From: a virus | Lineage: Duplodnaviria; Caudoviricetes | IMG/VR virus record: IMGVR_UViG_3300027586_001442 | Location: 1 to 54,992 of that record | DNA length: 54,992 bases | Direction: 5' to 3' (one strand) | In this document: positions 26,692-49,263 of the stretch, piece by piece | Layout: each line of letters begins with the position of its first letter | Numbering within the stretch: position 1 is the first letter of the stretch | The notes under the pieces: generated by a model | The model's input: the letters and a program-made list of their open reading frames with translations, nothing else | Told to the model about the DNA's origin: nothing | The model's database searches: none | Program-made: the position numbers and the translations under genes

Positions 26692-27143
26692 CAGTTCTCC
26701 TCTTCCTTTCTTTCCTTCTGTATTCGTTCCATGAGTGACTTCCTGTTTATGCCGCTTGCGTCATAGATGTTTATCGTATTGCCCTTTTCCTTGCCCTTGC
26801 CCATCCACGGCTGGTAGGTGTCGGGCTGCTTCAGTTTTATCCTGGTCATGAGGTCGGCTATCCTTGTCATCTTTTCGCTCGTCTCTATTCTGGTCTTGAG
26901 GAGGTTCACAAGAGCCTCCTTGCTGGCCGTGGACGAATCCCCGTCGTTCAGCACCATGTTGGAAAAGGTGTCCACGAGGTTGGAAACCTGACTTCTGTCG
27001 TCTCGCAGGTTCTCCATGATCTCGCCATACACCCCCAGAAGCGACTCGTCGCTCACCAGGGATAGTTCCTTTTCCTGTACGGGCGCCACATCTACCTTTT
27101 CGCCCAGCAATTCTTCAGATCGTTCCGACAGTTCTTTGCCCAT
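26691..27143 (-). CDS. Hypothetical protein
   Basis: Likely start MGKELSE at 27143, just downstream of a TATATA motif; this avoids overlap with the divergent gene. Confidence 0.65.
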   Translation of the reverse strand: MGKELSERSEELLGEKVDVAPVQEKELSLVSDESLLGVYGEIMENLRDDRSQVSNLVDTFSNMVLNDGDSSTASKEALVNLLKTRIETSEKMTRIADLMTRIKLKQPDTYQPWMGKGKEKGNTINIYDASGINRKSLMERIQKERKEEEN

Positions 27144-29746: not shown

Positions 29747-29748
29747 AG

Positions 29749-30627: not shown

Positions 30628-30700
30628 CTTATTCCTTTTGATGCAATAATCTAGTTTGCGGGCGATCTTTTTGATTGCGAACGACTGTGGACTCGCAATA

Positions 30701-31468: not shown

Positions 31469-31477
31469 AATGAAATC

Positions 31478-32296
31478 CTAGTCAGGCGAAATAATGTCGC
31501 CCTCTTGGAGAACATGGGGGACTTCGGTCACTTGGGACGGGTTCGTCTTGGCGCCGGCATATTGATACTGTATTTTACGGGCGAAATCCCCGGCCGCAGA
31601 TCCCGCCGAGTATTCTATTATCTGTGTAATCCTGTCGCTCGCGTCCACCGTGAGCTTCTGAAATGTAAACAGTCCCGACCTTCCACTGAGAAGTTCGTAG
31701 TCTTCCCTGGCCACAGAATCAAAGCCCGCTTCCTGTATCACCACTTCGTCAACCGGATTTGCGGGGTCAAGTTTTATCAGCATTCCCACGCTGTCCTGAA
31801 ATGCATTCCTGTTCGCTATGGTGTGCCTGCCGAAATATTCGGGCATTTCAGCCACTCCGGCATGCTTGTTGAACCTTAGTTTTGTTTCCGCGCCGGCATT
31901 GCCGAAATACATTCTTCCGTTCTTCTTCTTGGCGGGGTTCTTGGAGATTCCAACCGAATCGCCTCCATCAACCCCCACGACGGACGCGATGTACATGGAC
32001 GAGAACATGGGGTCGACATTGAGAGCCGAGGCGACCTCGCCGGGCGTGGTGGCCTCCGTATTTGCTCCGGAAACGTCTATGGAAACGGAAGCCCAGTTCT
32101 TGAATTCGGGATCCCAGCAGAAATTGAACTCAAGAACGCCTGAGACGGACAGATCATAGGGGCCTGGGTTCCATGCGATCATTTTTGACTGCATGTTCTT
32201 GTTTGGCGGAGCCTTAAATGTGAGCGAAAGCTTCCTGTCCCCCAAAACCAGGTATCCCTGGTATTCCTGGTCAAAAACATTTTGGAAAAAAGCCAT
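31478..32296 (-). CDS. Hypothetical, probably virion-associated protein
   Basis: 272-aa ORF with AAGGA RBS and upstream TATATA; beta-rich. Confidence 0.7.
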   Translation of the reverse strand: MAFFQNVFDQEYQGYLVLGDRKLSLTFKAPPNKNMQSKMIAWNPGPYDLSVSGVLEFNFCWDPEFKNWASVSIDVSGANTEATTPGEVASALNVDPMFSSMYIASVVGVDGGDSVGISKNPAKKKNGRMYFGNAGAETKLRFNKHAGVAEMPEYFGRHTIANRNAFQDSVGMLIKLDPANPVDEVVIQEAGFDSVAREDYELLSGRSGLFTFQKLTVDASDRITQIIEYSAGSAAGDFARKIQYQYAGAKTNPSQVTEVPHVLQEGDIISPD

Positions 32297-32328
32297 TTTT
32301 CTGTCCTTTTGCGAGGTTAACTACCCAT

Positions 32329-32334
32329 TATATA
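32329..32334. promoter_or_regulatory. TATATA motif between divergent genes
   Basis: Between starts 32296(-) and 32411(+). Confidence 0.5.
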
Positions 32335-32362
32335 GCTCAAGGGTGCTCAAAAATGATTGGGG

Positions 32363-32390
32363 TTGCGGCGGCGGCCGTTCAGAGTACAAT
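32363..32390 (+). promoter_or_regulatory. Possible sigma70-type promoter
   Basis: TTGCGG-16 nt-TACAAT upstream of the gene at 32411. Confidence 0.3.
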
Positions 32391-32410
32391 GAAGACACAA
32401 GGGGTGAAAA

Positions 32411-33283
32411 GTGAATATCAACATATGGGAAGTTCATCCGAAGGCGTGCAGGATAGAACCCGCCGAAAAGACGTGCATGGGCAAGGCAAACAAGGGCGCG
32501 ACGCAGTGGTGCGGTCCATATGTGAATGCCAACGAGTCCGGATTCTGGGTCTATCCCCCCGTGGACATGGAATTCGTCCTTTCGGATGATGGGTTTAAGG
32601 TGCTGAATTGCGAGGAATATGGGGATGATGATTTCAGATTAGTCGAATCTCTCATAAGGCAGGATGACCAGTCCGACTTCCAGAAATGGACGTTTCCCGG
32701 CACCGGAAGGACCAAGATGACCTTCGGACTTGTTGAGCCGAATGTCATTCAGATATGGACGGGGCTGATATTTGAGACGGCCCCGGGATGGTGCCTCCAC
32801 ATAAGAAGCCCTATAAACATGCCCAACGAGGACTTCACAATCGTGGAGGCCGTGCTTGAAACAGACTGGATGCAGTACGATATCTGGATGAATCTGTCTG
32901 TAAATGCAAAGAACAAGCCCATATCGATAAGAAAGCAAGTCCCCATAGCCCAACTTGTCCCCACCAGAAGAGAGACATTCAAGGGGGAATGGAGTCTGAA
33001 GAGAAGCATGATGAACAGGGACACGCCGGAAGCCGAAAGAGTTTTTGAATACTGGCTCCGTTACAACAAACAAAAGTTTGAAAATGGCGGCAATCAGGCC
33101 TTGAGCGAGACTCTCACCAAGGATTCCACTACATATTTGCGGGAGAGGAGCAGGATTCTTGGAAAAGAGATGGAACCCTCACAGAGCAAATGTCCTTTTG
33201 CTCATTTCCATGAGATCAAAAAACCTATTTTTGAGCCCCTTGAAGAGTCGCCCCTGCTGAGGAAGTTTTCAAGAAAAACCTAG
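32411..33283 (+). CDS. DUF6065-family protein
   Basis: CGPYVNANESGFWVYPP...TGLIFETAPGW...RSPIN...EAVLETDW...PIAQLVP. Confidence 0.7.
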   Translation: MNINIWEVHPKACRIEPAEKTCMGKANKGATQWCGPYVNANESGFWVYPPVDMEFVLSDDGFKVLNCEEYGDDDFRLVESLIRQDDQSDFQKWTFPGTGRTKMTFGLVEPNVIQIWTGLIFETAPGWCLHIRSPINMPNEDFTIVEAVLETDWMQYDIWMNLSVNAKNKPISIRKQVPIAQLVPTRRETFKGEWSLKRSMMNRDTPEAERVFEYWLRYNKQKFENGGNQALSETLTKDSTTYLRERSRILGKEMEPSQSKCPFAHFHEIKKPIFEPLEESPLLRKFSRKT

Positions 33284-33472
33284 TTCCGTGCAGATTTTAT
33301 CGTAGTCCTTGCGACTTAAGGACATTTTCTTCTTCTCCATCTCCTTCTTTACATCCTCATAGGATGGAGGAGTTCTGGCCATTATGCACTTTATCCAGTC
33401 TGTTTTTTCCCTATAGACAGATTCGAACAAGTCATACTTCGCTTCTTCTGAATAATCTGTTTCCTCTATCAT
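33269..33472 (-). CDS. Hypothetical protein
   Basis: ATGA-coupled small ORF. Confidence 0.6.
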   Translation of the reverse strand: MIEETDYSEEAKYDLFESVYREKTDWIKCIMARTPPSYEDVKKEMEKKKMSLSRKDYDKICTELGFS

Positions 33473-33900
33473 TTTGGAATTCCGCTTATGTCCCAGGTTC
33501 CTTTTTCACCCACATTGGCCGCGTAGTCCTTGTTTGCCGCAGGCTTTTCCTTTCCGCCTTTCAGATGGGCTATGTTCCATATGCCCTTCTCTCCCGCCTT
33601 CGCAGCATAATCCTTCCCCACGGGATGGCTGGGCTTTCCATCAAGATGGGATATGTCCCACAGCGGTCCTTCGCCACTATCTAATTTCTTTTCTGATGGC
33701 TCTGGTAGTTTTTTTAGTCTCGGATGATCTTTTCCTTTGTAAATTCTATCGTCAAGTGATAAGTAAAAAATTGCGTCCGCACTTCTCGTTAAATACCACT
33801 GGGGCGGATAAAGACCTATTCCCCCATATCCAAGAGGATACAAGCCTGTTTTGGCACCTTCTTGCGCTTCTTTTAACAACCAATCTTTAAAGTTCATCAC
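33469..33900 (-). CDS. Hypothetical protein with three GE.G.W(D/N)I repeats
   Basis: MMNFKDWLLKEA start; GEGPLWDISHL / GEKGIWNIAHL / GEKGTWDISGI. Confidence 0.75.
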   Translation of the reverse strand: MMNFKDWLLKEAQEGAKTGLYPLGYGGIGLYPPQWYLTRSADAIFYLSLDDRIYKGKDHPRLKKLPEPSEKKLDSGEGPLWDISHLDGKPSHPVGKDYAAKAGEKGIWNIAHLKGGKEKPAANKDYAANVGEKGTWDISGIPK

Positions 33901-34112
33901 TCGCCCCGATTGGATTTTTCAATCTCGTTTCTGTTATTTCCGCCCCTGACTCCCTTGTGCTTGTCCGTTTCTATGGTTCCGGAACGCCCGTGCTTCATGT
34001 CGTGCATGCTCTTTTTTGCGGCGAGCTGAAACAATTCAAAATTGGTCTTCCTTTTGGGCATCTTTGTGGCGGTTCTCTGGTTTCTTTCCACAAGCCACTT
34101 GGTGAATTTCAT
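33897..34112 (-). CDS. Small basic protein
   Basis: MKFTKWLVE start, overlapping neighbours by 4 nt on both sides. Confidence 0.7.
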   Translation of the reverse strand: MKFTKWLVERNQRTATKMPKRKTNFELFQLAAKKSMHDMKHGRSGTIETDKHKGVRGGNNRNEIEKSNRGE

Positions 34113-34927
34113 TTCAGAAGCCTCCTTATTCCTCTTTTATCTAGTACGCCGTAGTTGGACTTGCCGTACTCAACCCCTTCCTTGCACCTGTTGAATTCGA
34201 TAGTCTCAAAGGGCGTCTCGTTGGGCTGGACGAGGTGGATTTTTATTCCCTTGTAGCCGACCTCGCCCTCGTTTTTAAGGCATCGGTTGATGTCTCGCAT
34301 CATTATCTCGTTGAGGCTGATGTCCAGGGCCCTGAAGGCCATCTTCACGGCTCGCATGAAGCCCGTTGGAATCTCCCACTTGTCTATTTCAAATCTTCTG
34401 CCCATAATCACATAAATGTCACTGCACCCGGCCTCTATGCACTGTTCGAGAGGAGCTAGTTGTCTGCTTCCCGCGTCAACCCATCCGCCGCGATCCTCTA
34501 CCAGGGCGGTTATGGCGACACTGCCTAAAACGGCCTCGGCAAACTCATCGGGCGTGACAGACTTGTTTGACACATAATCCATCCGACCGTCTTCTATGTT
34601 CATCCTGACCACCACGCTCTCGCATATTGCAGGATTCTTGATTGCGTTATATACAATCTTCTCCATGGGCTTCTGGTTCATAATGCCTGTTTTCCACAAA
34701 AAGTTGTAGTTGATGCCGAATACATCAAATATGTTTGAAATGTCATTCCACATGTCGGCCAGCCCTTGGGGGCCAAGATGAGAATACGAGGCTGCGCATA
34801 TGGATCCCGACGAAACTCCGATTGTGAAGTCTGCGTCGATGCCTTTTTCATGAAGCCCAATCGCAATTCCCGCCTGAACCGATCCTCTTGCGCCCTCTCC
34901 TGTGAAGCAGAATCCAATTTTGCTCAT
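34109..34927 (-). CDS. Patatin-like phospholipase
   Basis: GEGARG oxyanion loop, GVSSG nucleophile, DAG acid; real start MSKIGF at 34927 (ATGA coupling). Confidence 0.88.
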   Translation of the reverse strand: MSKIGFCFTGEGARGSVQAGIAIGLHEKGIDADFTIGVSSGSICAASYSHLGPQGLADMWNDISNIFDVFGINYNFLWKTGIMNQKPMEKIVYNAIKNPAICESVVVRMNIEDGRMDYVSNKSVTPDEFAEAVLGSVAITALVEDRGGWVDAGSRQLAPLEQCIEAGCSDIYVIMGRRFEIDKWEIPTGFMRAVKMAFRALDISLNEIMMRDINRCLKNEGEVGYKGIKIHLVQPNETPFETIEFNRCKEGVEYGKSNYGVLDKRGIRRLLK

Positions 34928-35238
34928 TTTTTCTTTTTCCTCTTTCTCTTTTTTTTGCAATTTTTGCATCCGCAATTTGGATAACAATACCCGCAACCAA
35001 TGACGGATGGCCTAAAGGCTATCGAACCAGATGTTGTTCCTTGGCTCGGTGGAGTCACCACGCCCCCAGATGTTCCACCACCGGCCTCACCCCCAGATGT
35101 TCCACCACCGGCCTCACCTCCAGATGTTCCACCACCGGCCTCACCTCCAGATGCCCCACCAGCGGTGCCTCCAGATGTTCCACCACCGGCGGCACCAGCA
35201 TCCTCTTTAAGTCTCATCCATTCTGTGAATTTCAGCAT
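34924..35238 (-). CDS. Gly-rich protein with Cys cluster and basic tail
   Basis: MLKFTEWMRLKE, 27-bp repeats (GGEAGGGTS), CGYCYPNCGCKNC, KKKRKRKKKK. Confidence 0.7.
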   Translation of the reverse strand: MLKFTEWMRLKEDAGAAGGGTSGGTAGGASGGEAGGGTSGGEAGGGTSGGEAGGGTSGGVVTPPSQGTTSGSIAFRPSVIGCGYCYPNCGCKNCKKKRKRKKKK

Positions 35239-35254
35239 GTTTTTTCTCCATTAC

Positions 35255-35260
35255 TATATA
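35255..35260. promoter_or_regulatory. TATATA motif between divergent genes
   Basis: Between starts 35238(-) and 35284(+). Confidence 0.5.
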
Positions 35261-35283
35261 CTTAATACACCGAGGAATTAATT

Positions 35284-35481
35284 ATGAAGTACGAATACAA
35301 ATATGTGATATGCTTTCTTGATGAAAGCAATTCCTCAATCAAGCAGCTGGATAAACTGCTCCAGGAGGGCTGGGAACCCTTCAGGGAGACTGCAATGCCC
35401 TCAAGCGGATCCAATTACTCCGAGAACGCACAGCCTCCAACCTGCATGTGCTTGATTCGAAGACCGATCACCAGTGCCTGA
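35284..35481 (+). CDS. Small hypothetical protein
   Basis: GAGG RBS; YEYKYV...LDKLLQEGWE pattern (DUF4177/DUF1737-like). Confidence 0.65.
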   Translation: MKYEYKYVICFLDESNSSIKQLDKLLQEGWEPFRETAMPSSGSNYSENAQPPTCMCLIRRPITSA

Positions 35482-35659
35482 TGACGCTTGCTATGACGAA
35501 CCCGCAGGTGATGAAGTTCACGGCGACTATCAAAAGCCTCACCAGGAAAGCAAACCAAGCCTCATCCATTGGGAGAATGGGAAGATCGGGCTTGTCGTCG
35601 TCTGTGATGCCTATTCTATAGTCCATCGCCCTCGCAAGGATAAGCAGAAATCTTTTCAT
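35468..35659 (-). CDS. Small membrane protein
   Basis: MKRFLLILARAM...hydrophobic C-terminus ending VIRHW. Confidence 0.6.
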   Translation of the reverse strand: MKRFLLILARAMDYRIGITDDDKPDLPILPMDEAWFAFLVRLLIVAVNFITCGFVIASVIRHW

Positions 35660-35676
35660 GCGGATATGTATGGACT

Positions 35677-36180
35677 TCAGAGCGGTTTGAATACCTGCGT
35701 CGTGCATGAGTTGGGAAGTTCTGCCGCATGTCCAAAAACGTTTTTCGAGGTGACTTCCTTCTTGGAAATGTCTATTCTCTCTCTGTTCTTGAAGTAATTG
35801 GGCCCGTAGCTCACGAATATCTCCTCGTCCTTCTCTATCCTGCGCAGCGATTTTATGTCGGCTATTTCGTTCTTCAGATCAAAGCTGATCGAGGCGCTGT
35901 TGTCTTCCTGATGGTTGTATATCTGTCCGTACCCCATCACCATGAGAAAGTGACCCCCGTGCCTCTTGCACTCCTCGCAAGGACAACTATTGGTAAACAT
36001 GTAGGACCAAATCAACGGATCCTTGTGGTAGTTCATCCTGAATCCCATGACCTTTAATGGGCATCTTTCTATGATTTCGCCGGACTCTATGTCCTCTGTT
36101 GCGAAAACGCCCTTCCCATGTATGGGGGAGTAGTCAAGCCGAATTTTTCTCTTCAGATTTAGCGGAGGTTTTTCTTCCAT
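35677..36180 (-). CDS. SET-domain protein (putative lysine methyltransferase)
   Basis: SPIHGKGVFATEDI..GEIIE, IYNH, IEKDEEIFVSYG..YF. Confidence 0.9.
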   Translation of the reverse strand: MEEKPPLNLKRKIRLDYSPIHGKGVFATEDIESGEIIERCPLKVMGFRMNYHKDPLIWSYMFTNSCPCEECKRHGGHFLMVMGYGQIYNHQEDNSASISFDLKNEIADIKSLRRIEKDEEIFVSYGPNYFKNRERIDISKKEVTSKNVFGHAAELPNSCTTQVFKPL

Positions 36181-36195
36181 GAAAGTAATATAGTT

Positions 36196-36393
36196 TCATG
36201 CAAACCAATTATCCCAGTCGTCGGCCTCTTTTTCGACCGCCTTTGCCATGAGGCCGAGAGTCGCCTCCCCGTATGCCTTGGCCGCCTTCCTGAGCATTTT
36301 GCTTCTTGTGCCGTCCGTAGTGGCCCTGGCGACCCTGACGATCTCATCCGCCCTCTCTATCAACTCGTTCCTTACAAATGGAGCCAGTCCCAT
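36196..36393 (-). CDS. Hypothetical protein
   Basis: GGAGG RBS before MGLAPFVR at 36393. Confidence 0.6.
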   Translation of the reverse strand: MGLAPFVRNELIERADEIVRVARATTDGTRSKMLRKAAKAYGEATLGLMAKAVEKEADDWDNWFA

Positions 36394-36453
36394 GTGCGTT
36401 CCTCCGGCATTATTTATCCTTTCGGAACTACAGAAAAAAGGATTTTTCGCCAA

Positions 36454-37461
36454 TCAGCACCTCGTCTCCGCCATCCTGAAAACCTGATCGAGGCTCATGC
36501 CATCGGAATCAGCCTCGGATCCAGGCCCCAGAATCTTTGCCCTGGTCTCGGCGTCAGGATTGCCAAACTCCCTGACAAATTTGAATCTAGAGGGTCTGTT
36601 TTTCAGCGCATCGTCAACCTTGCCTATGTCGTTGACCGTCATGATGAATGCGACGTTTTCGTGGGTGGTATACACGCCGTCAAGGGCGTTCAGTATGATG
36701 TCAAATGTGAACTTTATGTTCTTGTTGTCTCCGCCCAGTATGCATTTTCGTCCATCAAAGTAGTTGTCGAAGTCTTCTAAAAGCACGATGCATCTCTTTG
36801 GAATCTGTGAAAATATGAGGAGCAGATCGTGATTCGTCCAGTCGGGACTCAACGTGAAGATCATGATCGGAATCTTGTGTTTGGTGGCGAGATATTTTAT
36901 CAGGTGCGTCTTGCCATTTCCGGGAGGTCCATAAAGCAGGGCGCTTGTTTTTCTCCTCTTGCCGTTTGAAACCTCCAGGACCTCTTCCTCAAAATCCTTC
37001 CACAGATCTGCTTTGACGGCGGGTTCGCTAAAAACCTCCTTCAGAGACCCTATCTTGTCGGCTCCGTAGGGAAGCATCAACTGGACGGGGACGCCAAGCG
37101 TGCACAGCTGCATCTCCGTCATTTTTATTTTTATGAAATCCTTGAGTCGCCTATATCTCCACCGGAAGCACGTGATCGTTGTGACATGGTCTTTATCATT
37201 GAAACCGGCCTGCATCAGCCTTTCGGAATGATTGATGAAAAACCAAGGCGAATCCTTCAAGAAACAAAAGGCCACATATGAAACGGGGTGCCTGTTTTCC
37301 GAAACGAGTTCCTCGTATATTATTATCTTTTTGTCATCCTTGCACAGATCGTAGAAGGTCTTGTAGATGTTCGCGTCCACCCTCGTCTCTATTAGAAGCA
37401 CATACTTGAAAAATGCGAAAGTTCCGAAGATAGACGCCAACACGGTTATGAATGCAGCCAT
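36454..37461 (-). CDS. BCS1-like AAA+ ATPase with N-terminal TM anchor
   Basis: LLYGPPGNGKT (Walker A), LLEDFD (Walker B), LNALDGV, RPSRF; hydrophobic N-terminus. Confidence 0.88.
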   Translation of the reverse strand: MAAFITVLASIFGTFAFFKYVLLIETRVDANIYKTFYDLCKDDKKIIIYEELVSENRHPVSYVAFCFLKDSPWFFINHSERLMQAGFNDKDHVTTITCFRWRYRRLKDFIKIKMTEMQLCTLGVPVQLMLPYGADKIGSLKEVFSEPAVKADLWKDFEEEVLEVSNGKRRKTSALLYGPPGNGKTHLIKYLATKHKIPIMIFTLSPDWTNHDLLLIFSQIPKRCIVLLEDFDNYFDGRKCILGGDNKNIKFTFDIILNALDGVYTTHENVAFIMTVNDIGKVDDALKNRPSRFKFVREFGNPDAETRAKILGPGSEADSDGMSLDQVFRMAETRC

Positions 37462-37497
37462 GACTTGAATATAGTACGAATCATCATTTTAATCAAG

Positions 37498-39960
37498 TCA
37501 CGCGGGTACAAAAGGACCTTCGCCTGTGGGGTTGGAAGAGACCGGAGTGGGGTCTGCGTCGCTTTGAGTCGCGTACTTCCAGTATCCGCCTAGTCCCCCA
37601 TTTTTGGCCATCGAGAAGTATGCGGCCTTGTACCATTCGTTTTCTGTTGGAATCCAATACGAAGCCCCGGAAATCTTTGTCGCGCTTGTTCCACTGATGG
37701 CGTAGGCCCCGTTTTCTGTGGTGCTTGCGTTTTGTAATCCGGTCGGCCTGCCGTTGTGCAGCCAATTGCAGTACCTGGCGCATGCCAACCAGTTGACAAA
37801 GTTCACGGGCTTGCCTCCCATGCTGGCCTTGACGGAATGAAAATAACTCCCAGCAACGCTACTGCGGGTTATTCCTCCGCGGGATTCACTGGCCATGTTC
37901 GTGCTGTAGAGTCCATAGGTGTCCGTAGACGCCACGGCATTCAAAAATTCAACATACTGACTTTGAGTTACAGTATATTTGGAAATTTGATAGGTATAAT
38001 TAACAGAGCCGTACGCGGTGGTGTCGGCCGATCCGAGTACATCTCCCACACTTACGAAGTCTGAAATGCTCAATGGATTAAGGGAACTCGCCACTCTGAA
38101 TCCAACATCATATGACCTGTTGCTCACTCCGTAGAAAGTTCTGTATGAACTAGAGATATAGAAAGTCTGAAAATCCACAGATGGAGCGACGCTGACCCAA
38201 GAGCCACCGCGAATGCACCGGCTCGTTCCCGATGCGGCCTCGTTCCACTCCCAAACATTTCCGCTCTGATCCAATGTTCCGTAATAGCTGGGACCTCCGT
38301 TTGTTCCCACGGTCGTCAGGTTTCCATCCTGCCCGTTCCAGTCCGCCACTCTGTTGTAATTGGCGTAATTGTACCCAATTTGCGTGGGCGTTGGTGTCTG
38401 GGTTGGTGTGGCTGTAGCCGTTGGAGTTGAAGTAGGTGTCTGGGTTGGCGTGGCTGTCGCTGTAGGTGTTGAAGTAGGTGTCTGAGTTGGCGTGGCTGTT
38501 GCCGTGGGCGTTGAAGTTGGTGTGGCTGTCGCCGTAGGCGTTGCCGTAGGTGTCTGGGTTGGTGTGGCTGTCGCTGTAGGTGTTGCCGTAGGTGTCTGGG
38601 TTGGTGTGGCTGTTGCCGTTGGAGTGCGTGTGGGTGTGGCTGTAGCCGTTGGAGTTGGAGTTGAAGTAGGTGTCTGGGTTGGTGTGGCTGTCGCTGTAGG
38701 TGTTGCCGTAGGTGATGAAGGATTTACAAGCGTCAAAACTCCGACTGGAACACTAATCGTATTGTTTCCACTTGGTGTCATAGCGGGCCATGTGGAACTT
38801 ATTCCATTGGCAGTTCCGGAACTCGCATTTCCTGTGTACTGATATACCGGCCTTCCATTTACAATCAAATGTCTGTTCAGGCCTTCTGTAATTGTTGCAG
38901 ATATACCCGCACCCACTTGAAGTGCGCCTTGTATAAGAACATACGGCCACGCCGATCCCGCGTAGGAAGGAGACGAGTTTGAGTCGGGAGCAAATTTGTA
39001 TATGGTCCTCAATTGTGATGTCGCCGAACCACCACTGGTGGGGCCAGCATACGCATTTGAAACTTGCAAATATTCATTTCCAACATCATCATATGATATG
39101 TGAAGCGTGGTGTTGATATCTTGCTCTGCTTGCGTGGAAGTCGGAGTGTTTGTGGGCGTTGCTGTGAGAGTAGGGGTGGAAGTCGGAGTGCTTGTGGGCG
39201 TTGCTGTGAGAGTAGGAGTGGAAGTTACAGTAAGTGTCGGGGTCGGAGTCGGCGTGGGTACGAGCGGATAGAAGTCAACGCGACCCGGAGCGTTGAATGA
39301 CCCCACAAATGTTGACTGATATTCAACTGAACTCCCATTTGAAATTGCGGCGAATGCAAATGGCATTCCGAGGTAAGGATGAGTGAACGTAACCGTTGCG
39401 ACCTGAACATCCGACACATATATGTTCATGTTGGCAGGCAGGCCACTGAAGTCGTACAGGGAATTAAAAGAAAGAGTATTGCCCGGTTCGGAAACAAGCA
39501 CCACTCCAAATTGAGCGGGGGACACTCCGCCCGGAGGTGAAGTCATGACTATGTAGGGAGCGGGGGTGGAGGTCAGTGTGGGCGTGAGGGTCGGGGTCGG
39601 GGTCAGCGTAGACGTCGGTGTGCGAGTGGGCGTCGATGTCGGCGTGAGTGTGGGGGTCGGGGTCAGTGTGGACGTCGGTGTCGGTGTGGGAGGCAACAGA
39701 TTCGGAGGTACCTGATCGGGTTCCGAATAAAGAACGTATCCAAGATTGTTTCTGTCGCTTTGCAAGAAGTAGAATTCAAACTTTTCCAAAGAGTCAAATG
39801 AATTGAATATTGAATCGCTTTCCCAAAGATCCAAAGAAAGTCCGTCCGCGCTGACCTTCCAAGCCGCAATCATGTAGGGCCGGCCCAGCAGAGAGTCTAT
39901 TGGCCGAGAGTCAGTCAAAAACTGTATGAACTCCAATTTTCTCGTGATTACCTTCGGCAT
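37498..39960 (-). CDS. Modular adhesin-like protein (820 aa): PT linkers, GRVDF domain, COG4315-like domain, circularly permuted FGE/CLec domain
   Basis: GNVWEW...RGGSW...GFRVAS precedes [18 protein letters not shown]...[11 protein letters not shown]; long (TP/TA)n tracts. Confidence 0.85.
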
Positions 39961-39968
39961 CGCTCTCC

Positions 39969-42900
39969 TTAGAAATCCACCCTTCCATCGGCCTCAAAGG
40001 AACCCAGGTATACAGCTCCAGTACTTCTTGTGAATTTGAACCCTTGGCCGATGTAAGCATTCGTCACGGAAAGTGAGGCGACCTGCACGTTTGACACCCA
40101 TATTTTGATGCTCGTGAACGATTGAGACCCGGTTGAACTTATCGTGTTGTAAGAAATGCTGCTGCCCGCGGTGGAATTAAGAGTTATTCCGTCTCCGTTG
40201 ACCGTGCTCGTCCCAGTTGGAATCGTGATAGTGGTGTTGTAGATTGAGCCATTGTTTGTTGGTGTCAATGTAGGTGTGGGAGTTTGAGTTGGCGTGGGTG
40301 TGCTTGTACTTGTCGGAGTCAATGTGGGCGTCGGGGTTGGTGCTATTACGCTCAAATATATGAATTCACTCTCTACCGCATATCCCTCTCTTGAGTCACT
40401 ACTAATCACTACAAAACGAGCATTGTTCAATGATGAGGTTGCCGTAAATCTTAAGTAGCCAACAATCGCTCCTGGCCCCGTGCCATTAGCGATTTGAGAA
40501 TTTTCATAGTCTGGATGGATGTATGTGATGTTATCACCTTGGAATTCCACTATGGTAGTCCATTGAGATTGAACCGGGTCAAAAACTCTCCAATGTGTAA
40601 TTTGTGGAAACTCATAAGATGAATTAACCAACATCATAGTGTAATCAAGGGTAACAGACGATCCAAGCTCTGCCACCCTTGGATTTTCAGCCGAACTGGG
40701 AAATTGTTGTGGCAAGAAATAGGCGCCAACTGGCTCTGTCGGTGTTTGAGTCGGCGTGAGTGTAGGCGTGCTTGTCCTTGTTGGCGTGAGTGTAGGCGTT
40801 GATGTAGGAGTCGGAGTCGGAGTCGGAGTGGGGGTTGGCACAGGACAGGACGAGATGCTTGCGAGACGAAAACCGATGATGCTGCTCCCGAACGACAGAC
40901 CGATGAAGTTGCGACTCGAGGACGACACAACGCTGGAATAGTTGCCCCAATTGCCGCCCCGGAGCCCACGAGACGACCCGGCGGTGCCATCCAGATCGTT
41001 CCACTGAGATACGTTGCCTGTTTGGTCAAAAGTGCCGTAGAAACTTCCGCTGCCACTAAACGAGTCCACGTCAGTACTGTGGCCGATGGCACCATTGTAG
41101 TTGGCCTGATTGGCACTGCTGCCGATCGTGGTGCCGGGGGCAGAGTTACTCTGCGTGGCGAAAGCATAGTAGCCGCCGATACCAGAGCCACCGTAATTGG
41201 GCGAGTAGTACGCCGCCTTGTACCACTCGTTCTCAAGCGGTATTCGGAATATCGGAGCCAAGCCCGTATTCGGGTTGGTGGCGTTGGCGGCCACGGCATT
41301 GCCTGAAGTGGCGCCGTTCAAGTTGTAAGCGCCGTTTTCAGTCGTCGTGCTGGTCTGGGCTCCGCTTGGCTGGCCGTTGCTCATCCAGTTGGAAAACCTC
41401 GCACAGTCAAACCAGCTCACATACGAAATCGGACGGTTGCCAGTGCTGTTTAGAACGGTGTACGTGTAACTTCCAGTGGTGCCAGAGCGGCTGATTTGGG
41501 CAACATCGGTGTCTGTGCCCATGCTTGCGTTGTAGAGACCGTAGGTGTCGGTCGCGGCTACGGCATTTAAGAACGCCGTGTACTGCGAGCCCGTCACGTC
41601 GTACTTCCCGATCTGGTACGAGTACGACACGGCACCATACAGGCCGTCGGCGGCGTTGCCAGGATTGCCAACCGTCACCATAGTCATATTAAATAGGGGC
41701 GTGTCGGTGGCGTCTCCATCTATTGTCGCCTGAACTGGTTTTGGAATCAAATCGCTTTGGGTAGCATAAACCCAATAGCCAGCATTAGTACTTCCACCCT
41801 TATAATAAGCCGCTTTATACCATTCATTTTCATTGGGAATGTAATAGAGAGCTCCGGAATTTTTAGTTACAGCATTTTGACCAGTTAGTTCAACTAGCGT
41901 ATATGCCCCAGTTTCTGTACTGCCATTACCCTTCTCGTTATGAAGCCAATTACAATATCGGGCGCAGTCAAACCAAGAAACATAATTTACTGGTTTGTTT
42001 TCATAGTTGTTTTTCACAACATAGGTATAACCTCCAGAACTTCCAGATCTAGTAATTCCCCCTCTGGAAGCACCCATATTCGCATGATATAATTCATGAG
42101 AGTCGGTTTTGGCCACAGCATTCAAAAATTCAGCATACTCGGTGTTGGTAACAAGAAGCGCTCCAATTTTATAATCATAAGCAACGGCACCATAACTGGG
42201 GTAACTACTACTGCTGGACGAACTGCCGCCACGGCTCGTATCAGCGGCGTTCTCGGCATCTCCCACATCTACAAAATTAGGAAGACCTAAAAGATTAAGA
42301 GAGGATGCGATACGAAAACCTATGGTGACGGCGTACCCGTACGGCGGGGCCAAGTTGTTGTGATACGAGGACGACAAGCTGTCGGAACTGTTGCTCCAGC
42401 TGCCGCCCCGGTAGCCAACATGACCCATATTGAGTGGCTGGTACAGATCATACCATTGAGATACGTTGCCGGTTTGGTCATATGTCCCATAAGCAGAAGG
42501 CCCGCCATTGGTTCCAACACTTGTGACGTTACCATCTTGACCGTCCCAGTCCGCAACGCTGTTGTAGTTACCAGAATTGCATCCTGCTATTATGCCGGAC
42601 GAACTGCTGCTGGATGAACTGCTGCCGGACGAACTGCCGCTGGATGAACCGCCGCTGGATGAACTGCTACTGGATGAACTGCTACTGGATGAACTGCTAC
42701 TGGATGAACTGCTACTGGATGAACTGCTACTGGATGAACTGCTACTGGATGAACTGCTACTGGATGAACTGCTACTGGATGAACCACCGCCGCTGGATGA
42801 ACTGCTACTGGATGAACTGCTACTGGATGAACCACCACCGCTGGATGAACCGCTACTGGATGAACTGCTACTGAATGAGCCGCTACTGGATGAACTGCTA

Positions 42901-45341
42901 CTGAATGAACCGCCGCTGGATGAACTGCTGCTGCCGCTGCTGATGCTTGAGCCACCACCACCATTTGGCCCGCCACCGCCGTCGTCACCAGATGCCTCAC
43001 ATCCCGTGTTGTCGCCGTTTGCTTTGTAGCCCTCTTCGCAATAGCATGATCCATCATTGCCCAACACGGTGTTCGCGGGACATCCACCTGGTCCTGGTCC
43101 TGGTCCTGCACCACCTGGACCACCACCTGGCACGCCACCACCACCTGGCACGGCACCACCACCATTTGGCCCGCCACCGCCGCCACCCGGTCCAACCGGG
43201 CCTGCCTCTCCCTGTGCGGGGCAACCGGCGAGCGAGAATACGTCCGCCATGAAATCAGCCGGTACCGGCTGTCTGGTCGCGTTGCACAAGCACAAGCATT
43301 CGCCTTGGAAAACTCCGCCCGTCTGTCCGACAGGGCATTCCTTCAGATTTGGAACGCACTTGGTTCTACCAATTTCATCAGGATCGGGGACTAACTTCTG
43401 GCAAGGGTTTGTGCATTTGCACTCGCATTCGCCATTTAAAACCTCGCCCGTCTGTCCGACAGAGCAAAATGGCACGCACTCGTCTCCGTCTTGATTCCCC
43501 AACATAAACTCGCAAGGATCTGTGCACTTGCAGTCACCGGCTACGCAAGTTGATCCGGCCGGACACGTCTTGGGAACACATACTCCATCTTCATTTTTTT
43601 CTTCACACGGGCCAACACATGCGCATTCGCAAGGAGAAGGGCCGGAGTCTGAATTTCGTTCTTGTCCGTCCGGACATGCTGGATGGCATTTTTGGCCGCA
43701 ATATGTTTCGGGGTCAACGCACGCGACACAATCTCCGGTATTAGGATCCCTCGCTGGAGTGGGATCGGAGCAAATGGGTGCGCAACGTTCTGAATTCTGT
43801 CCTTGTTTATTCCATATTGTTGTTCCCGGAGGGCAACATTGGCAAGGCGTGTCATCGCCGCCAGAGTACCCCTCGGCATTCAGTCTTCCCGGCCCGCCAA
43901 CGGCGCATGGCTCGTAACACTCACTGCTACAGTTCACCATGCCATTGACGGGGGATACATCAGTTCCGCCGTAGCAATCTTTGCATTCGCACTCATTTGT
44001 TTGGGAATTAAACTTCGGGGCCTTGTCCATACCACACTGGTCCACACACTCGCCTGTCGGAGAACCATAACACAGTTGTTCTTCACAAGGACAAATACCC
44101 GCCGGATCGGGCTGGGAACAGCTGGACGAGCCAGGTGTCAATGTGAGCGTTGGCGTGGGTGTTTGAGTTGGCGTGAGTGTTGGTGTTTGATTTGGCGTTG
44201 ATGTCGGCGTGAGTGTGGGGGTTGGGGTCGGGGCTTTACAAGCCTTGTAGCACGCGTCATAGGTCTTGAATTCGGCCGAACCATTCACCTCTTTGCATTC
44301 TAAATTCACGCAATCGTAGTTTGCGCAACCCAACTTGAGGCATTCCTCTTCGGAGCTATATGATCCCTGGGGGTCTTGTTCGCATTTATATGTAAAGGTG
44401 TTGCATTTGTATTTAAATTCGCTTGCGCTTGCTGTTGGCGTTAGTGTTGGCGTTGGTGCCGGTGTTTGTGTTGGCGTCGTGCATGGGTATCCGTATACAT
44501 TTTTGCACGGCACTAGACCGCCGGTATACGTATTTTCTCCGCACTGACAGCAGCAATCCCGTTCGCTATCATATTGACCGTCTACTCTCTTTTTGCAAGT
44601 TCCATTTATACATGAATATTTCGTACAACTGACCGCTTGCATTGTAACGCCATCAAAGGAAGTCGACGAGCATCTTCCTTCGGCGTAGGAGATTGCAAAT
44701 AGATCTCCTTCCAATTCGGCTCGCATAACATATTCTTCGTAGCAGCCATCTACGCAGCCACTTTCCTCACACCAGTTTACAATCTTGCAACTCGAGGATG
44801 ACGAACTTGAACCGCTTGAACTGGAGGTGCTAGAGGGTTCTTTGGGCTCTTTGGGCTCTTCGGACGACGAACTTGAGCCCGACGAACTTGAACCCGACGA
44901 GCTTGAACCCGACGAACTTGAACCCGACGAACTTGAACCCGTGGAGCTTGAACCCGTGGAGCTTGAACCCGTGGAACTTGAACCCGTGGAACTTGAACCC
45001 GTGGAACTCGAGGATTCCGATGTGCTCGAGGATTCCGACGTGCTTGAACCCGACGTGCTTGAGGGATCGGGTGGATTGGGTATTTGCCTGCAAACCCCGT
45101 CGGCTCCAAAGGTGAATATCGTTTGGGCGTTCACCGTCGGCACTTCCGAAGAAGATTCCAAGGGCATTCCTGCAAGATAACCCATGGGCGCGCCCACGCC
45201 CACGCAACCCTCTTTGCATGCAAACCCAACAGTCCAGTTTGGGACCCTGCATTCTGCGGTGGTAGAGCTTCCTTCGCTATGCTTATCTAGCGTGAATACC
45301 AGTTCCTCGAATAATTTTCTGATGTTTTGGCCAAGTCTCAT
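39969..45341 (-). CDS. Giant mosaic adhesin-like protein (1790 aa): Cys-rich repeats, poly-Ser, permuted plus canonical FGE/CLec domains, Ig-like domain, GRVDF domain
   Basis: Continuous ORF; two ENEWYKAAY and two GNVSQW...RGG.W...GFR motif sets; many CxC and CP.G repeats. Confidence 0.88.
42595..42935 (-). repeat. 15-bp tandem array coding poly-Ser/Gly
   Basis: TGGATGAACTGCTAC and variants, about 22 units, with a perfect run at ~42655-42785. Confidence 0.95.
44865..45062 (-). repeat. 15-bp tandem array coding [10 protein letters not shown]
   Basis: GAACTTGAACCCG(AC/TG) units, plus a few 18-bp variants. Confidence 0.92.
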
Positions 45342-45474: not shown

Positions 45475-46908
45475 ATGAGATTTTCCACGTGGCTTTTTGC
45501 CGAGGAACAGCAGAACACGGCGATAAGAAGCAGAAAAGACCCTAATCCAAAAGACCCCAACAAGAGCTTTCTTGTTCTCTATGGGAATACGGCTCCCATT
45601 TCGTCCGAACTCAAGAGGCTCGGCTTCGGTTTCTTCAGACCGGCGGCCACATGGTCTACCTCGTCGCTTCGAGTTGACGACCAGATGAGGGAAAGGCTCA
45701 AGTCGCTCGGCATAGACATGAGCGGATACGATTCTCCCGTAGAAACACCTAGGACGCCCCTTCAGGTACAGCCAGAAACGCCGGCAGACGAAACCCTGGA
45801 AAGAATGCACGGGGAGCTTGGCAAGGTCTTCGCGGACGACCCGAAGACACAAGAACTCATCAATAGCATTGATAGCATGATAGAGAGGATAGCCAACAGC
45901 ACCGATGAGGCGGCGAAACAGGCCTTCATCAGGAATTTTTTCCAATTCTCGGGCAAGTTCTACAACTACAGCATGCACAACCAGTTCTTGATTTGGATAC
46001 AGACCAAGGGAAGGGCCAACCACGTGGCCGGAGCGAAGCAGTGGGAACAGAAGTTCGGCCGGTCCGTTAGAGACTGGAAATCTTCCATCTCTATCCTCAT
46101 GCCGATCACTAAAGAAAAAGAATCGCTAAATGCGAAGACGGGCGAGCTCCAGACAGACAAGAGGGTCTTCTTCAAGACCACAAAAGTGTACGACGTGAGT
46201 GCCACCGTGCCGATCCCCGGACACCCCAGCTCCTTCGAGCCCATGACCAGGAAACAGTGGAGTGTGGACTCGAACGAGGACGCTGAGGAAATAAACAAAT
46301 ATATAAAGGCCGCCGAAGACTGGGCCCAAGACCAAGGCATAGAAGTTACTTACGAGAAGTTGGATCCCGAGACGGGAGGCTACTCCGCCGGCGGACGCAT
46401 CGTGATAAACATAGACTTCAAGGGAATAAACCGCTTCAGCACGCTCGTCCACGAATTGGCTCACGAAATTCTTCACTGGAAGGATAAAGACAAAACCTCA
46501 AGCCGAACGGAAAAAGAGATAGACGCCGAACCCAGCGCCGCCATCGTGCTGAGTCACTTCGGCTTCCAGACCAAAGACACGCCCAACTACCTCGCCCTAT
46601 TCGGAGCCAAGGGAGATGACGTACGCTCGAGAAAAACCAACCTACACAAGGCCGCCAAAGAAATAATCAATGGAATAAAAAGCCGGATGGAGAAGTCGGA
46701 GATGAAAGAGAGCCACGATCGTTCTTCCTTGAACATATCATTCGCGGCTTTCGCCAAGGATGGAACCATCATAGCCATAGTCGACGGCAAGAGAAAGAAA
46801 TTCGTCGTAGATGCGATCAACCACGAAAGTCTAAAGAAAATGAAGCCTCTTGATGCCTATGCCAAAATCATGGATATGGTGGCAAATGGTTACGCCCTTG
46901 AAATTTAG
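45475..46908 (+). CDS. ArdC-like ssDNA-binding N-domain fused to an ImmA/IrrE-type zinc metallopeptidase domain
   Basis: FYNYSMHNQFLIWIQ...VAGAKQW...GRSV...ISILMP...FKTTKVYDVSAT; TLVHELAH...EIDAE. Confidence 0.82.
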   Translation: MRFSTWLFAEEQQNTAIRSRKDPNPKDPNKSFLVLYGNTAPISSELKRLGFGFFRPAATWSTSSLRVDDQMRERLKSLGIDMSGYDSPVETPRTPLQVQPETPADETLERMHGELGKVFADDPKTQELINSIDSMIERIANSTDEAAKQAFIRNFFQFSGKFYNYSMHNQFLIWIQTKGRANHVAGAKQWEQKFGRSVRDWKSSISILMPITKEKESLNAKTGELQTDKRVFFKTTKVYDVSATVPIPGHPSSFEPMTRKQWSVDSNEDAEEINKYIKAAEDWAQDQGIEVTYEKLDPETGGYSAGGRIVINIDFKGINRFSTLVHELAHEILHWKDKDKTSSRTEKEIDAEPSAAIVLSHFGFQTKDTPNYLALFGAKGDDVRSRKTNLHKAAKEIINGIKSRMEKSEMKESHDRSSLNISFAAFAKDGTIIAIVDGKRKKFVVDAINHESLKKMKPLDAYAKIMDMVANGYALEI

Positions 46909-47534
46909 AAGTATTTCTTGAAGACGGACTTGTACTTCTGATGAAGTGGTTTTTTATTCTTGATCCCCCTCGTAATCTTTTTGTTGATTTCGGTGGACAT
47001 GTAGGCCTGTATCTCGTCCTTCATGACTCCGGGGCAATAGCCGATGGCCTCAAGGTTTCTCTTGAACCTTGACATGCTGAAGTCGGATAGCCCTCTTGTG
47101 ATGTAGTCCATTTCCGACTTGTATTCAAGATCCGAATAATAAAGAGCGTGGGCAAGTTCGTGCCGGAATGTGGTGTTCTTGAGGGAATCCACGCCCATGA
47201 GGTAATTCCTTTTTCCGTCATCATACAGATCGTCAACTATCTTCTTCATTTCTATGTCGTAGGGCGTCTCAAGTTCATTCATCTCGTAGCATTTCTTCGC
47301 CACCACCAAGGGAAAATTGAAACCTACGAAGTCGTTGGGATAGGAAAACGATCCGAAGTTCTGCTTGCTGTACCACCTGAAGTAGTCCCATATGGAGAAC
47401 TTCTTGTCGCGGAAAGAGCTTCTGGGGCTCTCGTAGAACTCTTGAACCCTGCAGAAGAGCATTGCCCGTTCATAATCGTCCTTGACGACCACCGCGAATA
47501 TGTTCGGCCTTATTTCCTTGATTTTGTATTTCAT
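46905..47534 (-). CDS. Hypothetical protein with HExxH motif
   Basis: Start MKYKIKEI is ATGA-coupled; RHELAHALY...DEIQAY zincin-like motif. Confidence 0.7.
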   Translation of the reverse strand: MKYKIKEIRPNIFAVVVKDDYERAMLFCRVQEFYESPRSSFRDKKFSIWDYFRWYSKQNFGSFSYPNDFVGFNFPLVVAKKCYEMNELETPYDIEMKKIVDDLYDDGKRNYLMGVDSLKNTTFRHELAHALYYSDLEYKSEMDYITRGLSDFSMSRFKRNLEAIGYCPGVMKDEIQAYMSTEINKKITRGIKNKKPLHQKYKSVFKKYF

Positions 47535-48481
47535 CGGAGTGGGAGAGGTATGTAATTGGCACCGAACTCCCCCCCCGTACCGCCCCACTCCGTGATCGGA
47601 ATCGTCTGGGCGTATGCCGGGCCGAATAAAAGCTCGTTGAACATAGAGTTATCGGGAAGGATTTTGTAGTAGGGCTGCTGCCCGCTCTTCCCATGGCTCT
47701 CCGCGAACTTCTTGAGGAACTCCCCGACGGTCATCTCCTTGTCGCCCCGGACGGCCTTGAAGGTGGATGCGAGCCTTGCCGCAAACGCCCCCCGGACAGA
47801 CAGGTCTTCGACACTAGAGGAACTTATGATCAATATCTGATCATAAGCCCCCGAATCCTCTCCGTAATCTATCTCGGAATCAAAAATCCGTCCGTTTCCC
47901 GGCACGACATTCATGAAGAAGGCTGTGAAAGGAAGTTCCTTGCGGGAGTAGGAGGAGGGAAGTTCGGGAAGGAATGAAGTCGGCTTCGCCGTCTTGATCC
48001 CCCGCAGCAAATCCCCGTCCTGTTTCAGACTGTCCTGGATGCTCCCTTCGGCATGGCATGTGTCTACAAGGAGTATGAGCCGGCCTATGGTCTTTCCAGA
48101 CTTCTTGAGAGCCGCCAGCCCCTTGCCAAACTTGAAGCTTCCTCCCTCGGCAGTCATGCCAAATCTGTCTCCGCTTCCTCCTCCGTGGCTGTTGAAGTAA
48201 AGAAGTAGCGTGGCGTTCTCATCAAGATTTGAGGCTAGTTCCGTCATCTTTGAATAGATGAACGACGACGACACGTTGTGGTGCCTGCCAACGGAAAATC
48301 CAAGCGAACCGTCCTTGAATATGCTCTCCATGAGGTCTAGGTTCCTCAATCTCCCATCCTCGTTCGTCATCGTGAAGAGAGCCGCCACATTATTGGCGGA
48401 TGGGTCTATTGCTATTCCCGTCTTCTCTTGGGCATGAGCCACCCCGCACATCAGAATCAAAATAAACACAATAGTTTTCAT
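47531..48481 (-). CDS. Caspase/clan CD family peptidase with signal peptide
   Basis: LLLYFNSHGG (catalytic His) and LLVDTCHAEG (catalytic Cys); N-terminus MKTIVFILILMCGVAHA. Confidence 0.75.
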   Translation of the reverse strand: MKTIVFILILMCGVAHAQEKTGIAIDPSANNVAALFTMTNEDGRLRNLDLMESIFKDGSLGFSVGRHHNVSSSFIYSKMTELASNLDENATLLLYFNSHGGGSGDRFGMTAEGGSFKFGKGLAALKKSGKTIGRLILLVDTCHAEGSIQDSLKQDGDLLRGIKTAKPTSFLPELPSSYSRKELPFTAFFMNVVPGNGRIFDSEIDYGEDSGAYDQILIISSSSVEDLSVRGAFAARLASTFKAVRGDKEMTVGEFLKKFAESHGKSGQQPYYKILPDNSMFNELLFGPAYAQTIPITEWGGTGGEFGANYIPLPLR

Positions 48482-48483
48482 TT

Positions 48484-48636
48484 TCAGTTTCCTTCTATTT
48501 CTTTAAACTCGTTGGGCGAGAACGCGACAACATCGCCGCTATCCAGCCATATTTCATACAAATTTGCATTCAACCTTCTTGTGATGCACCCTCTTTCGCC
48601 CGTCTCATTAATTATCACGACTGCGCAGTTTGCCAT
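48484..48636 (-). CDS. Small hypothetical protein (50 aa)
   Basis: Below the track cutoff; manual translation MANCAVVIINETGERGCITRRLNANLYEIWLDSGDVVAFSPNEFKEIEGN with AAGGA RBS; fills the operon gap. Confidence 0.6.
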   Translation of the reverse strand: MANCAVVIINETGERGCITRRLNANLYEIWLDSGDVVAFSPNEFKEIEGN

Positions 48637-49063
48637 TATTCCTTCCGAGGTGACTTATAAGTTTGTTAGCAATTTCGTTCGTCATTCCCACGTCCGGGTC
48701 GGTCATGAAAAATTTCTTGCCCGCACCGCATCCGGCGTCGGGATCGCAATCCAAGATCGCGTACTTCTTCACTTTCGGATGCCTATCAAGCCACTCGCTT
48801 ATCTCGTCGCATCTGTGGCTTGCCGCGATCTTCTTGGTCCAGTCTAAGAGTTTTATTCCAAACCTTGATAAGGAGGCTTTTACAAGGTTCCTGTTTCGCT
48901 CTTGAAGCCTCCTTATGGAACTCAAAACGACCTCGGATCCCGTCTTGTTCACTACGGTAGCAAGAAGTTCTAGAAGGCCTTCGTCTATGTAATCAAATCC
49001 ATAATGGTAGATCAGAACATGGCTGTTCAAAACACCATCCACATCAAGAAAAATGACTTTCAA
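48608..49063 (-). CDS. HAD phosphatase of the Swiss-army-knife RNA-repair type (HAD_SAK-like)
   Basis: KVIFLDVDGVLN...VVLSS..R...RCDEISEWL...YAILD; GGAGG before TTG 49063. Confidence 0.8.
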   Translation of the reverse strand: MKVIFLDVDGVLNSHVLIYHYGFDYIDEGLLELLATVVNKTGSEVVLSSIRRLQERNRNLVKASLSRFGIKLLDWTKKIAASHRCDEISEWLDRHPKVKKYAILDCDPDAGCGAGKKFFMTDPDVGMTNEIANKLISHLGRNNGKLRSRDN

Positions 49064-49263
49064 AACCACCTCCCGCAAACATATCCTAGTGGGAAAAAAT
49101 TATTTTGAAAACACAATGAGACAAAGTACCAGAATTAGCGAAAAAATAAACATCCAACGCAAGGGAAGTATTTTGTGTCTGTCCACCATGGGTTCACTCC
49201 GACGAATGATATTGCATTCTACAATGAAATCTATATGATTGCAATCTCATCAAAAAACAAAAT

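Follow-up and report, generated by a model that had tools for sequence, protein, structure and literature searches.

Can a domain of the formylglycine-generating enzyme (FGE) family persist as a single folded unit when its last third is encoded ahead of its first two-thirds? The question is raised by two adjacent minus-strand genes in a 54,992-base stretch of Caudoviricetes DNA that makes up the whole of IMG/VR record IMGVR_UViG_3300027586_001442 (hereafter the window). From the list of open reading frames (ORFs) and their translations, the first gene encodes an 820-aa protein (P0001, 37498-39960) and the second a 1790-aa protein (P0002, 39969-45341). An earlier note, drawn from the letters and translations alone, had described circularly permuted FGE domains here next to a canonical copy. 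Below, N denotes the first two-thirds of the canonical domain, C its last third, and CN a unit in swapped order. We put at roughly three in four the probability that these genes carry non-catalytic binding modules of the FGE/SUMF1 type within large, linker-rich phage proteins, and that two of the three modules are circularly permuted and belong to one phage lineage.

In P0001, the segments run C-N and then meet a stop codon, while in P0002 they run C-N-N-C. The C segment of P0001 (residues 526-628; 38077-38385, minus strand, as for every feature of the two genes) reads ANYN...GNVWEW...RGGSW...GFR and was delimited by positions 150-254 of the Pfam profile PF03781 (FGE-sulfatase) and a local C-segment hidden Markov model (HMM). 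Its N segment (residues 631-807; 37540-38070) reads FVSVGD...FLNAVA...ENEWYKAAY...YATQSD and was delimited by profile positions 36-124 and a local N-segment HMM, both local models being built from the three copies in the window. At the junction (residues 623-634; 38059-38094), the former C-terminal strand (GFR) leads into what was the N-terminal strand (FVSV). The motifs follow one another at 38361 (NYN), 38262 (GNV), 38103 (GFR), 38088 (SSLN), 37644 (ENEWYKAAY) and 37572 (ATQS) before the stop codon, 13 residues past the N segment. Because an AAA ATPase gene (36454-37461) lies downstream, the FGE domain is not continued in the next gene. The first copy in P0002 (41733-42599, delimited by Pfam and the local HMMs) repeats this arrangement, with C (residues 915-1016; 42294-42599) followed by N (residues 1019-1203; 41733-42287) and motifs at 42569 (NYN), 42470 (GNV), 42320 (GFR), 42305 (SSLN), 41831 (ENEWYKAAY) and 41765 (ATQS). 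The second copy (40848-41696) is canonical, with N (residues 1216-1405; 41127-41696) followed by C (residues 1406-1498; 40848-41126); IGKYDVT is succeeded by ENEWYKAAY (41234), ATQS (41159), NYN (41102), GNV (41018) and GFR (40874). All of the motifs claimed by the earlier note are present, in the order and at the places it gave.

Profile matching gives the same picture. Against a cut-off of 23.3 bits, PF03781 scored 49.9 bits in P0001 (E = 4.6e-13) and 126.3 bits in P0002 (E = 2.1e-36, in three stretches). To show segment order, the profile was also run on separate protein fragments. In P0001, residues 533-624 match profile positions 150-254 (E = 2.1e-5) and residues 656-782 match positions 36-124 (E = 4.1e-10); in the swapped copy of P0002, residues 919-1012 match positions 145-254 (E = 7.9e-7) and residues 1055-1189 match positions 35-131 (E = 4e-11). 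The canonical copy matches positions 35-125 and then 153-254 as fragments, and 35-254 as one stretch in the whole protein. Fragment scores ranged from 21.8 to 43.5 bits, one C fragment (21.8) falling below the cut-off when taken alone, and a six-frame search of the record returned the identical five pieces. Collinear order is thus kept only by the canonical copy and is broken in P0001 and the first P0002 copy, which is the split, swapped pattern of matches that the earlier note had expected of both permuted copies. Judged on motifs and profile together, the pattern is far beyond chance.

Whether the two segments form one domain was addressed through architecture and through structure prediction. 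Among 237 proteins (the two from the window and the best matches of two database searches), 28 hold a lone C-N pair with both segments complete, and 37 hold repeats of that order (CNCN 27, CNCNCN 9, CNCNCNCN 1); canonical NCNC was counted in 85. In the repeat CN proteins, HMM envelopes place 2-3 residues between C and N, the distance from one N to the following C varies from ~15 to ~130 residues in one such protein (P0003), and many CN proteins end shortly after the N segment. Tight C-to-N junctions, variable N-to-C spacers and chain ends after N are what a C-N folding unit would predict. Given 68 aligned rows of clean CN units, AlphaFold2 modeled the P0001 unit at a mean predicted local distance difference test (pLDDT) score of 94.7 (93.3-94.7 over five models) and a predicted template modeling (pTM) score of 0.93. 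Near the junction, DSSP assigned strands in this model at unit residues 96-97, 101-102 and 112-115. The ten best-ranked Foldseek rows against the PDB are all chains of the FGE family (TvpA 2y3c, pFGE 1y4j, PorK, CarF and several FGEs), though none reached E <= 0.001. In VIA-align, model residues 104-292, comprising the N segment, align to N-terminal parts of CarF (2-177, Z = 6.2), TvpA (55-241, Z = 5.5) and human FGE (86-279, Z = 4.5-4.6), and residues 5-109, comprising the C segment, align to C-terminal parts of Streptomyces coelicolor FGE (187-306, Z = 5.4), CalU17 (178-307, Z = 5.0) and human FGE (252-374, Z = 4.8). A PDB profile search likewise placed the first part of the unit on SUMF2 198-266 and TvpA 213-292 and its later part on SUMF2 35-146. 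A single-sequence PDB search with the canonical copy found no match, and one with the P0001 C segment alone found only pFGE (E = 9e-4), with no usable alignment to a catalytic FGE. On the strength of the model, the swapped CN unit is predicted to be a true single domain with an FGE-type, C-type-lectin-like fold. The fragment matches, the lone CN proteins, the AlphaFold2 model and the half-alignments all point to the same answer as the earlier note, that the permutation is real and the halves form one domain.

An alternative hypothesis is that C and N are leftovers of a tandem array that complement each other in trans, between neighboring units or between fiber subunits, by domain swapping. Several units in a row are indeed common (27 CNCN and 9 CNCNCN among the 237 proteins), co-variation as used by AlphaFold2 is blind to whether a contact lies within or between chains, and the C segment was poorly placed in the first, 27-row model. 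Trimers occur among the lectin-fold receptor-binding proteins of phages, Mtd being an example, which also counts in favor of complementation. We nevertheless consider it unlikely. Lone CN occurs in the 28 proteins mentioned above and in 58 viral ORFs, some of these being cut by locus ends, and the P0001 unit itself is both alone and terminal. In addition, the link of ~10 residues between the old terminal strands, which pair in the canonical fold, is long enough for a hairpin, and the pTM of 0.93 was obtained for a monomer.

The two orders divide sharply between viruses on one side and bacteria and archaea on the other. IMG/VR queried with the P0001 unit yielded 78 loci on 70 contigs, the latter up to 244 kb; the same query against one genome per prokaryotic species confirmed 566 stretches, of which the best 80, mostly from metagenome-assembled genomes (MAGs) of Planctomycetota and Verrucomicrobiota, form the bacterial/archaeal side of the comparison. 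A tight, complete C-to-N pair was found in 69 of the 78 viral loci and in 20 of the 80 bacterial/archaeal ones, the latter all being tandem NCNC arrays. A C-to-N pair without an N-to-C pair was found in 68 viral loci and in no bacterial/archaeal locus, and an N-to-C pair in one viral locus compared to 73 of 80. When ORFs with at least two complete segments are sorted by register, 74 of 77 viral ORFs read C..N and none N..C, compared to none and 76 of 80, respectively, on the bacterial/archaeal side. The permuted form is common in large phages and absent from the sampled bacterial genomes, and the question put by the earlier note, whether the form is phage-restricted, is answered as essentially phage-side. 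One 1.6-kb contig binned in an archaeal MAG (L091) has a phage-type 'cN' junction. Two IMG/VR contigs of 6-12 kb (L169 and L170) hold three to five consecutive single-domain NC genes of ~300-340 aa each, unlike the linker-rich phage proteins. A family of 747-aa proteins of the form nCNCN (loci L222 and L242; P0024-P0029 and P0035) has a partial N of ~80 aa before its first C; its first unit may be cut elsewhere or be a remnant of an ancestral array.

Where did the permuted and canonical units come from? For a tree of 82 units (<90% identity), comprising 42 viral CN units, 37 bacterial NC units and the three from the window, N and C segments were aligned separately and joined in canonical order; the tree is unrooted and therefore carries no direction of change. 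One branch splits 44 CN from 38 NC rows (Shimodaira-Hasegawa-like approximate likelihood ratio test [SH-aLRT] support of 94), so that order changes once, and this single change holds with the segment ends removed (206 columns). The two CN units of the window fall among phage CN units (best identity 61-66%), while its canonical unit nests in a starred Planctomycetota/Verrucomicrobiota clade and is 68-70% identical to a sequence from Pirellulales. Forcing the canonical unit into the CN group costs 57.5 log-likelihood units (approximately unbiased [AU] test, p = 0.0115). From the tree placement and the AU test, the canonical copy of P0002 is not the source of the permuted copy, and the idea that the adjoining copy is the relative that gave rise to it is not supported. 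By these placements, P0002 appears to combine a module of the phage lineage with a module of bacterial type. In four lake/freshwater metagenome runs, from which Logan contigs were placed on 37400-42700, contig depth over the canonical unit (40940-41650) is 10-100x that of its flanks at >=90% likeness, which implies that closely similar DNA is abundant there in other organisms. The excess fits a recent exchange with Planctomycetota-like bacteria.

Tandem duplication, which the earlier note named as the classic route to such a permutation, fares better. In bacterial tandem NCNC junctions, the spacing from GFR to FVxVG is 8-11 residues in 20 of 23 cases, compared to 9-13 residues in 71 of 91 phage junctions, and the flanking motifs are similar; such arrays are thus a plausible precursor. 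The most likely source of the permuted lineage, we propose, is an internal C-N window in a tight tandem array of canonical units, as found in surface proteins of Planctomycetota and Verrucomicrobiota. In the permuted unit, the C third (GNVxEW, RGGSW, the variable stretch and GFR) comes first and the N two-thirds second, a hairpin of ~10 residues joins the two former terminal strands, and the new termini lie in the loop between YATQS and ANYN. The unit is predicted to fold alone as a compact domain. The canonical module of P0002 would be a separate and more recent arrival of bacterial type. A circular permutation necessarily leaves the new termini side by side, as the old ones had been, so the point at which a linker enters and leaves the domain has moved. 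The permutation may therefore shift the tether point on the domain surface; display of the variable site from a stalk, as the earlier note proposed, would be one possible consequence.

The stretch between RGGSW and GFR is the putative site of ligand binding. In P0001, it spans residues 584-622 (38095-38211), lacks cysteine and corresponds to the variable ligand-binding region of TvpA: the profile search aligned residues 213-292 of 2y3c, the variable C-terminal region, to this stretch. Column entropy over the 68 aligned units peaks within it, at unit residues ~77-96. On this alignment, the most variable stretch of the unit is best regarded as the equivalent of the ligand site. Such a position raises the possibility that the modules are targets of a diversity-generating retroelement (DGR) whose reverse transcriptase and template repeat lie outside the 55-kb fragment. 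Lectin-fold domains of FGE type are classic targets of DGRs, TvpA (2y3c) ranks first in Foldseek, the equivalent of the variable region (VR) is the most variable stretch, and the record is only ~11% complete. We find this quite unlikely. No reverse transcriptase domain (RVT_1) was found in the window or in any of the 41 related viral records with CN units, 11 of which are >=90% complete, and a direct-repeat scan of the window found no DGR template of the variable stretch and no long near-repeat of it; the three GNV-region copies are only 65-83% alike. DGR variable regions occupy the 3' end of their target gene, whereas the VR equivalent of the permuted unit is internal. Diversity would then be generated by ordinary mutation and module shuffling, without a DGR.

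A role as enzymes of the FGE/EgtB/PvdO group is what database names would suggest, since relatives are annotated as 'formylglycine-generating enzyme required for sulfatase activity' and the Pfam family is PF03781. In catalytic FGEs, a Cys pair (C336 and C341 in human FGE) follows RGGS(F/W) by a few residues; the PDB titles of 2aft and 2afy name C336S and C341S mutants. Between RGG(S/N)W and GFR, the motifs used to delimit the stretch, all three window copies are free of Cys. Among the 68 aligned CN units, none has two Cys between RGGxW and GFR and three have one. The NCBIfam models for EgtB (9.8-11.8 bits; cut-off, 360) and SenA (10.8-13.4 bits; cut-off, 420) gave sub-threshold noise, and Pfam reported no DinB-type partner domain, PF03781 being the sole family listed. 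Repeated modules on PT and Ser linkers in phage genomes also speak against catalysis, which we regard as very improbable. The absence of the Cys pair stands as the earlier note had it, and its reading of the modules as non-catalytic binding domains fits their place in linker-rich, multidomain phage proteins.

The Logan contigs bear on the soundness of the assembly. The whole P0001 unit is bridged by single contigs that run on into the downstream gene in runs X1 (0 differences), X2 and X4, which come from different studies. One X1 contig (41607-42684, 0 differences) covers the whole permuted unit of P0002 and the start of the canonical unit, and another (38685-41061) reaches the C part of the canonical unit, the middle of which (41061-41607) is covered by short pieces only. 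That the swapped order is a misassembly of repeated domains, which the earlier note had named as a way to undo the permutation, is barely credible: the region does hold three related copies, contigs do break within the canonical one (41061-41607) and odd low-support joints between copies were seen, but single contigs span the P0001 unit with its downstream gene in three runs and the permuted P0002 unit in one, and the identical order recurs in 69 of 78 independent IMG/VR loci and in many database proteins. The low-support joints, with sides of 21-45 letters, were judged uninformative.

If the modules bind ligands, the proteins that carry them may be virion fibers or adhesins that recognize a ligand of the host envelope, probably a glycan, through the variable stretch. 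P0001 consists of an N-terminal region, PT-rich linkers, two small domains, a long PT/AT linker and the C-terminal permuted domain. P0002 consists of Ser- and PT-rich linkers, Cys-rich modules, a Gly-rich stretch, a long poly-Ser run, the permuted unit, the canonical unit, a PT linker and two small domains. In related phages, three of ten tested neighbor ORFs of CN genes match tail-fiber PHROGs (L030, E = 1.3e-27; L022, E = 1.2e-8; L008, E = 3.9e-7), and homologues are fused to adhesion-type Pfam domains (Laminin_G_3, cadherin-like, DUF1566 and RCC1). We speculate further that CN is a distinct, phage-specific receptor-binding family of single origin, derived from a captured window of a host array; that moving the tether and taking the variable stretch off the 3' end of the gene lets specificity evolve by shuffling without a retroelement; that CN marks the host-recognition genes of large freshwater phages of Planctomycetota- or Verrucomicrobiota-like hosts; and that its annotation as formylglycine-generating enzyme has kept it from notice. 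This joint proposal is tentative, and we judge the odds to be somewhat against it.

Several points weigh against the picture of permuted, single-domain binding modules of one phage lineage. With an alignment of 27 rows, AlphaFold2 reached a pLDDT of 63.1, with the C segment below 50; compared to the strong 68-row model, this means that the confident fold depends on alignment depth. The best Foldseek E-value is 0.013 over ~100-114 aligned columns, the short alignments being a consequence of a sequential aligner given a permuted query, and the VIA-align Z scores are only middling (4.5-6.2), as each alignment spans just part of the domain. The exact canonical packing of the two halves is suggested by the pTM and by two half-alignments of a model. 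The phage/bacteria contrast rests on best-80 samples picked by similarity to window queries and is not a census, and a query with the canonical unit of the window matched viral contigs too, in 25 NC ORFs as well as 57 CN ORFs. The group tested by AU was named after the tree had been seen. The absence of RVT_1 from the window covers 55 kb of a fragment and not a whole genome. Finally, P0001 and P0002 have no tail match among PHROGs, only linker and 'kinase' matches (the latter to the FGE part), and they lie ~10 kb from the structural module (tape-measure, baseplate), between the AAA ATPase and an ArdC-like gene; their location on the virion is for these reasons a matter of inference.

Other parts of the two proteins merit description. 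The C-terminal domain of P0002 (residues ~1690-1790; 39969-40280) is homologous to residues 135-240 of P0001 (39250-39560), at 32-36% identity; neither has a family match, and this small shared domain may be structural or anchoring. The very long poly-Ser run of P0002 (42550-42990) is encoded by a 15-nt periodic repeat, a second repeat of SSSG type lies near the N terminus (44780-45030), and between the two are the Cys-rich modules (~residues 420-760), which have no Pfam match. Proteins 96% identical to the P0001 unit (the P0124 cluster) are 191-438 aa long compared to 820 aa, some of them probably being fragments, and their linkers and N-terminal parts vary strongly beside near-identical terminal domains.

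The record itself has a CheckV completeness of 11% and is therefore a fragment of a very large freshwater phage; taken at face value, this figure implies a genome of several hundred kilobases. The related CN-bearing records that contain loci L028 (83 kb) and L037 (59 kb) have estimated completeness of 16% and 12%, respectively, and complete relatives measure 131-244 kb. In INPHARED phage records, positions 9000-27000 had no megablast match and the permuted unit no tblastn match, and a tRNA scan of the window found none. Structural genes include a baseplate-wedge gene (12529-14103; phrog_219, E = 7e-27) and a tape-measure-like gene of 1749 aa. Next to the former, a 1162-aa protein (9037-12525) matches, over residues 77-189, a domain common to tail fiber, head decoration and virion structural PHROGs (E down to 4e-29) and may be another surface-display protein. 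The accessory genes in 28241-37461 and 45475-50304 are an unusual set for a phage: a nucleotidyltransferase of the poly(A)-polymerase/CCA type (28241-29746), a patatin-like lipase (34109-34996), a SET-domain protein (35677-36180), the AAA ATPase, a protein with ArdC-N and M78 peptidase domains (45475-46908), a caspase-like peptidase whose start resembles a signal peptide (47531-48481) and a C5 cytosine methylase (49264-50304). Positions 1-182, inside an open-ended minus-strand ORF (3-1352), are taken up by a tandem repeat with a 39-nt period (4.7 copies, 92% matches).

In full-text literature searches, no description of a permuted FGE-type domain was found; neither Pfam nor NCBIfam yielded a dedicated model for it, and the ESM Atlas returned only ordinary FGE-sulfatase clusters. 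Iyer et al. 2021 (PMC7824862), in a comparison of 224 jumbo phages, state that no 'FGS' lectin-fold domains were found in them; the metagenomic phages described here indicate that FGE-type domains do occur in large phages. Thousands of metagenomic proteins are named 'formylglycine-generating enzyme' (8193 representatives at E <= 0.001 for the query used here, canonical relatives included). Those with permuted order probably serve large phages as binding modules, and for them the enzyme label is almost certainly wrong. With a model of the permuted unit, genes that are candidates for host recognition would be flagged in uncultured large phages.

Among known systems, the FGE-sulfatase or SUMF1-like family (PF03781; human FGE, pFGE [SUMF2, 1y4j] and the bacterial FGEs 2q17 and 6muj) shares the same motifs and both halves of the fold, and pFGE, like the window copies, lacks the catalytic Cys pair. 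The window differs in that two of its three copies are permuted and sit on long flexible linkers in phage proteins, without the enzyme signature. TvpA of Treponema denticola (2y3c) is, like the window modules, a non-catalytic lectin-fold binding module with a variable surface between RGGSW-like and GFR-like motifs. In contrast to TvpA and other FGE-type DGR variable proteins, the variable stretch of the permuted unit is internal, with no RVT_1 in the window or the 41 related phage records and no template repeat in the window. Mtd of Bordetella phage BPP-1 (1yu0, 1yu3) is a phage receptor-binding protein with a lectin-type fold, and its C-terminal part aligns weakly to the first segment of the model (Z = 3.2-3.8); unlike CN, it is distant, canonical in order, diversified by a DGR and part of a tail fiber of known function. 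Further close counterparts are the tandem FGE surface proteins of Planctomycetota and Verrucomicrobiota (NCNC, often with PEP-CTERM, PF07589), which share 40-50% identity per unit and a GFR-to-FVxVG junction of the same length. These are bacterial chromosomal genes that read N..C in 76 of 80 ORFs, whereas their phage counterparts read C..N in 74 of 77. Set side by side, the two would make a rare teaching case of natural circular permutation, with a visible precursor in the tight tandem arrays, a clear product and a clean split between host and virus.

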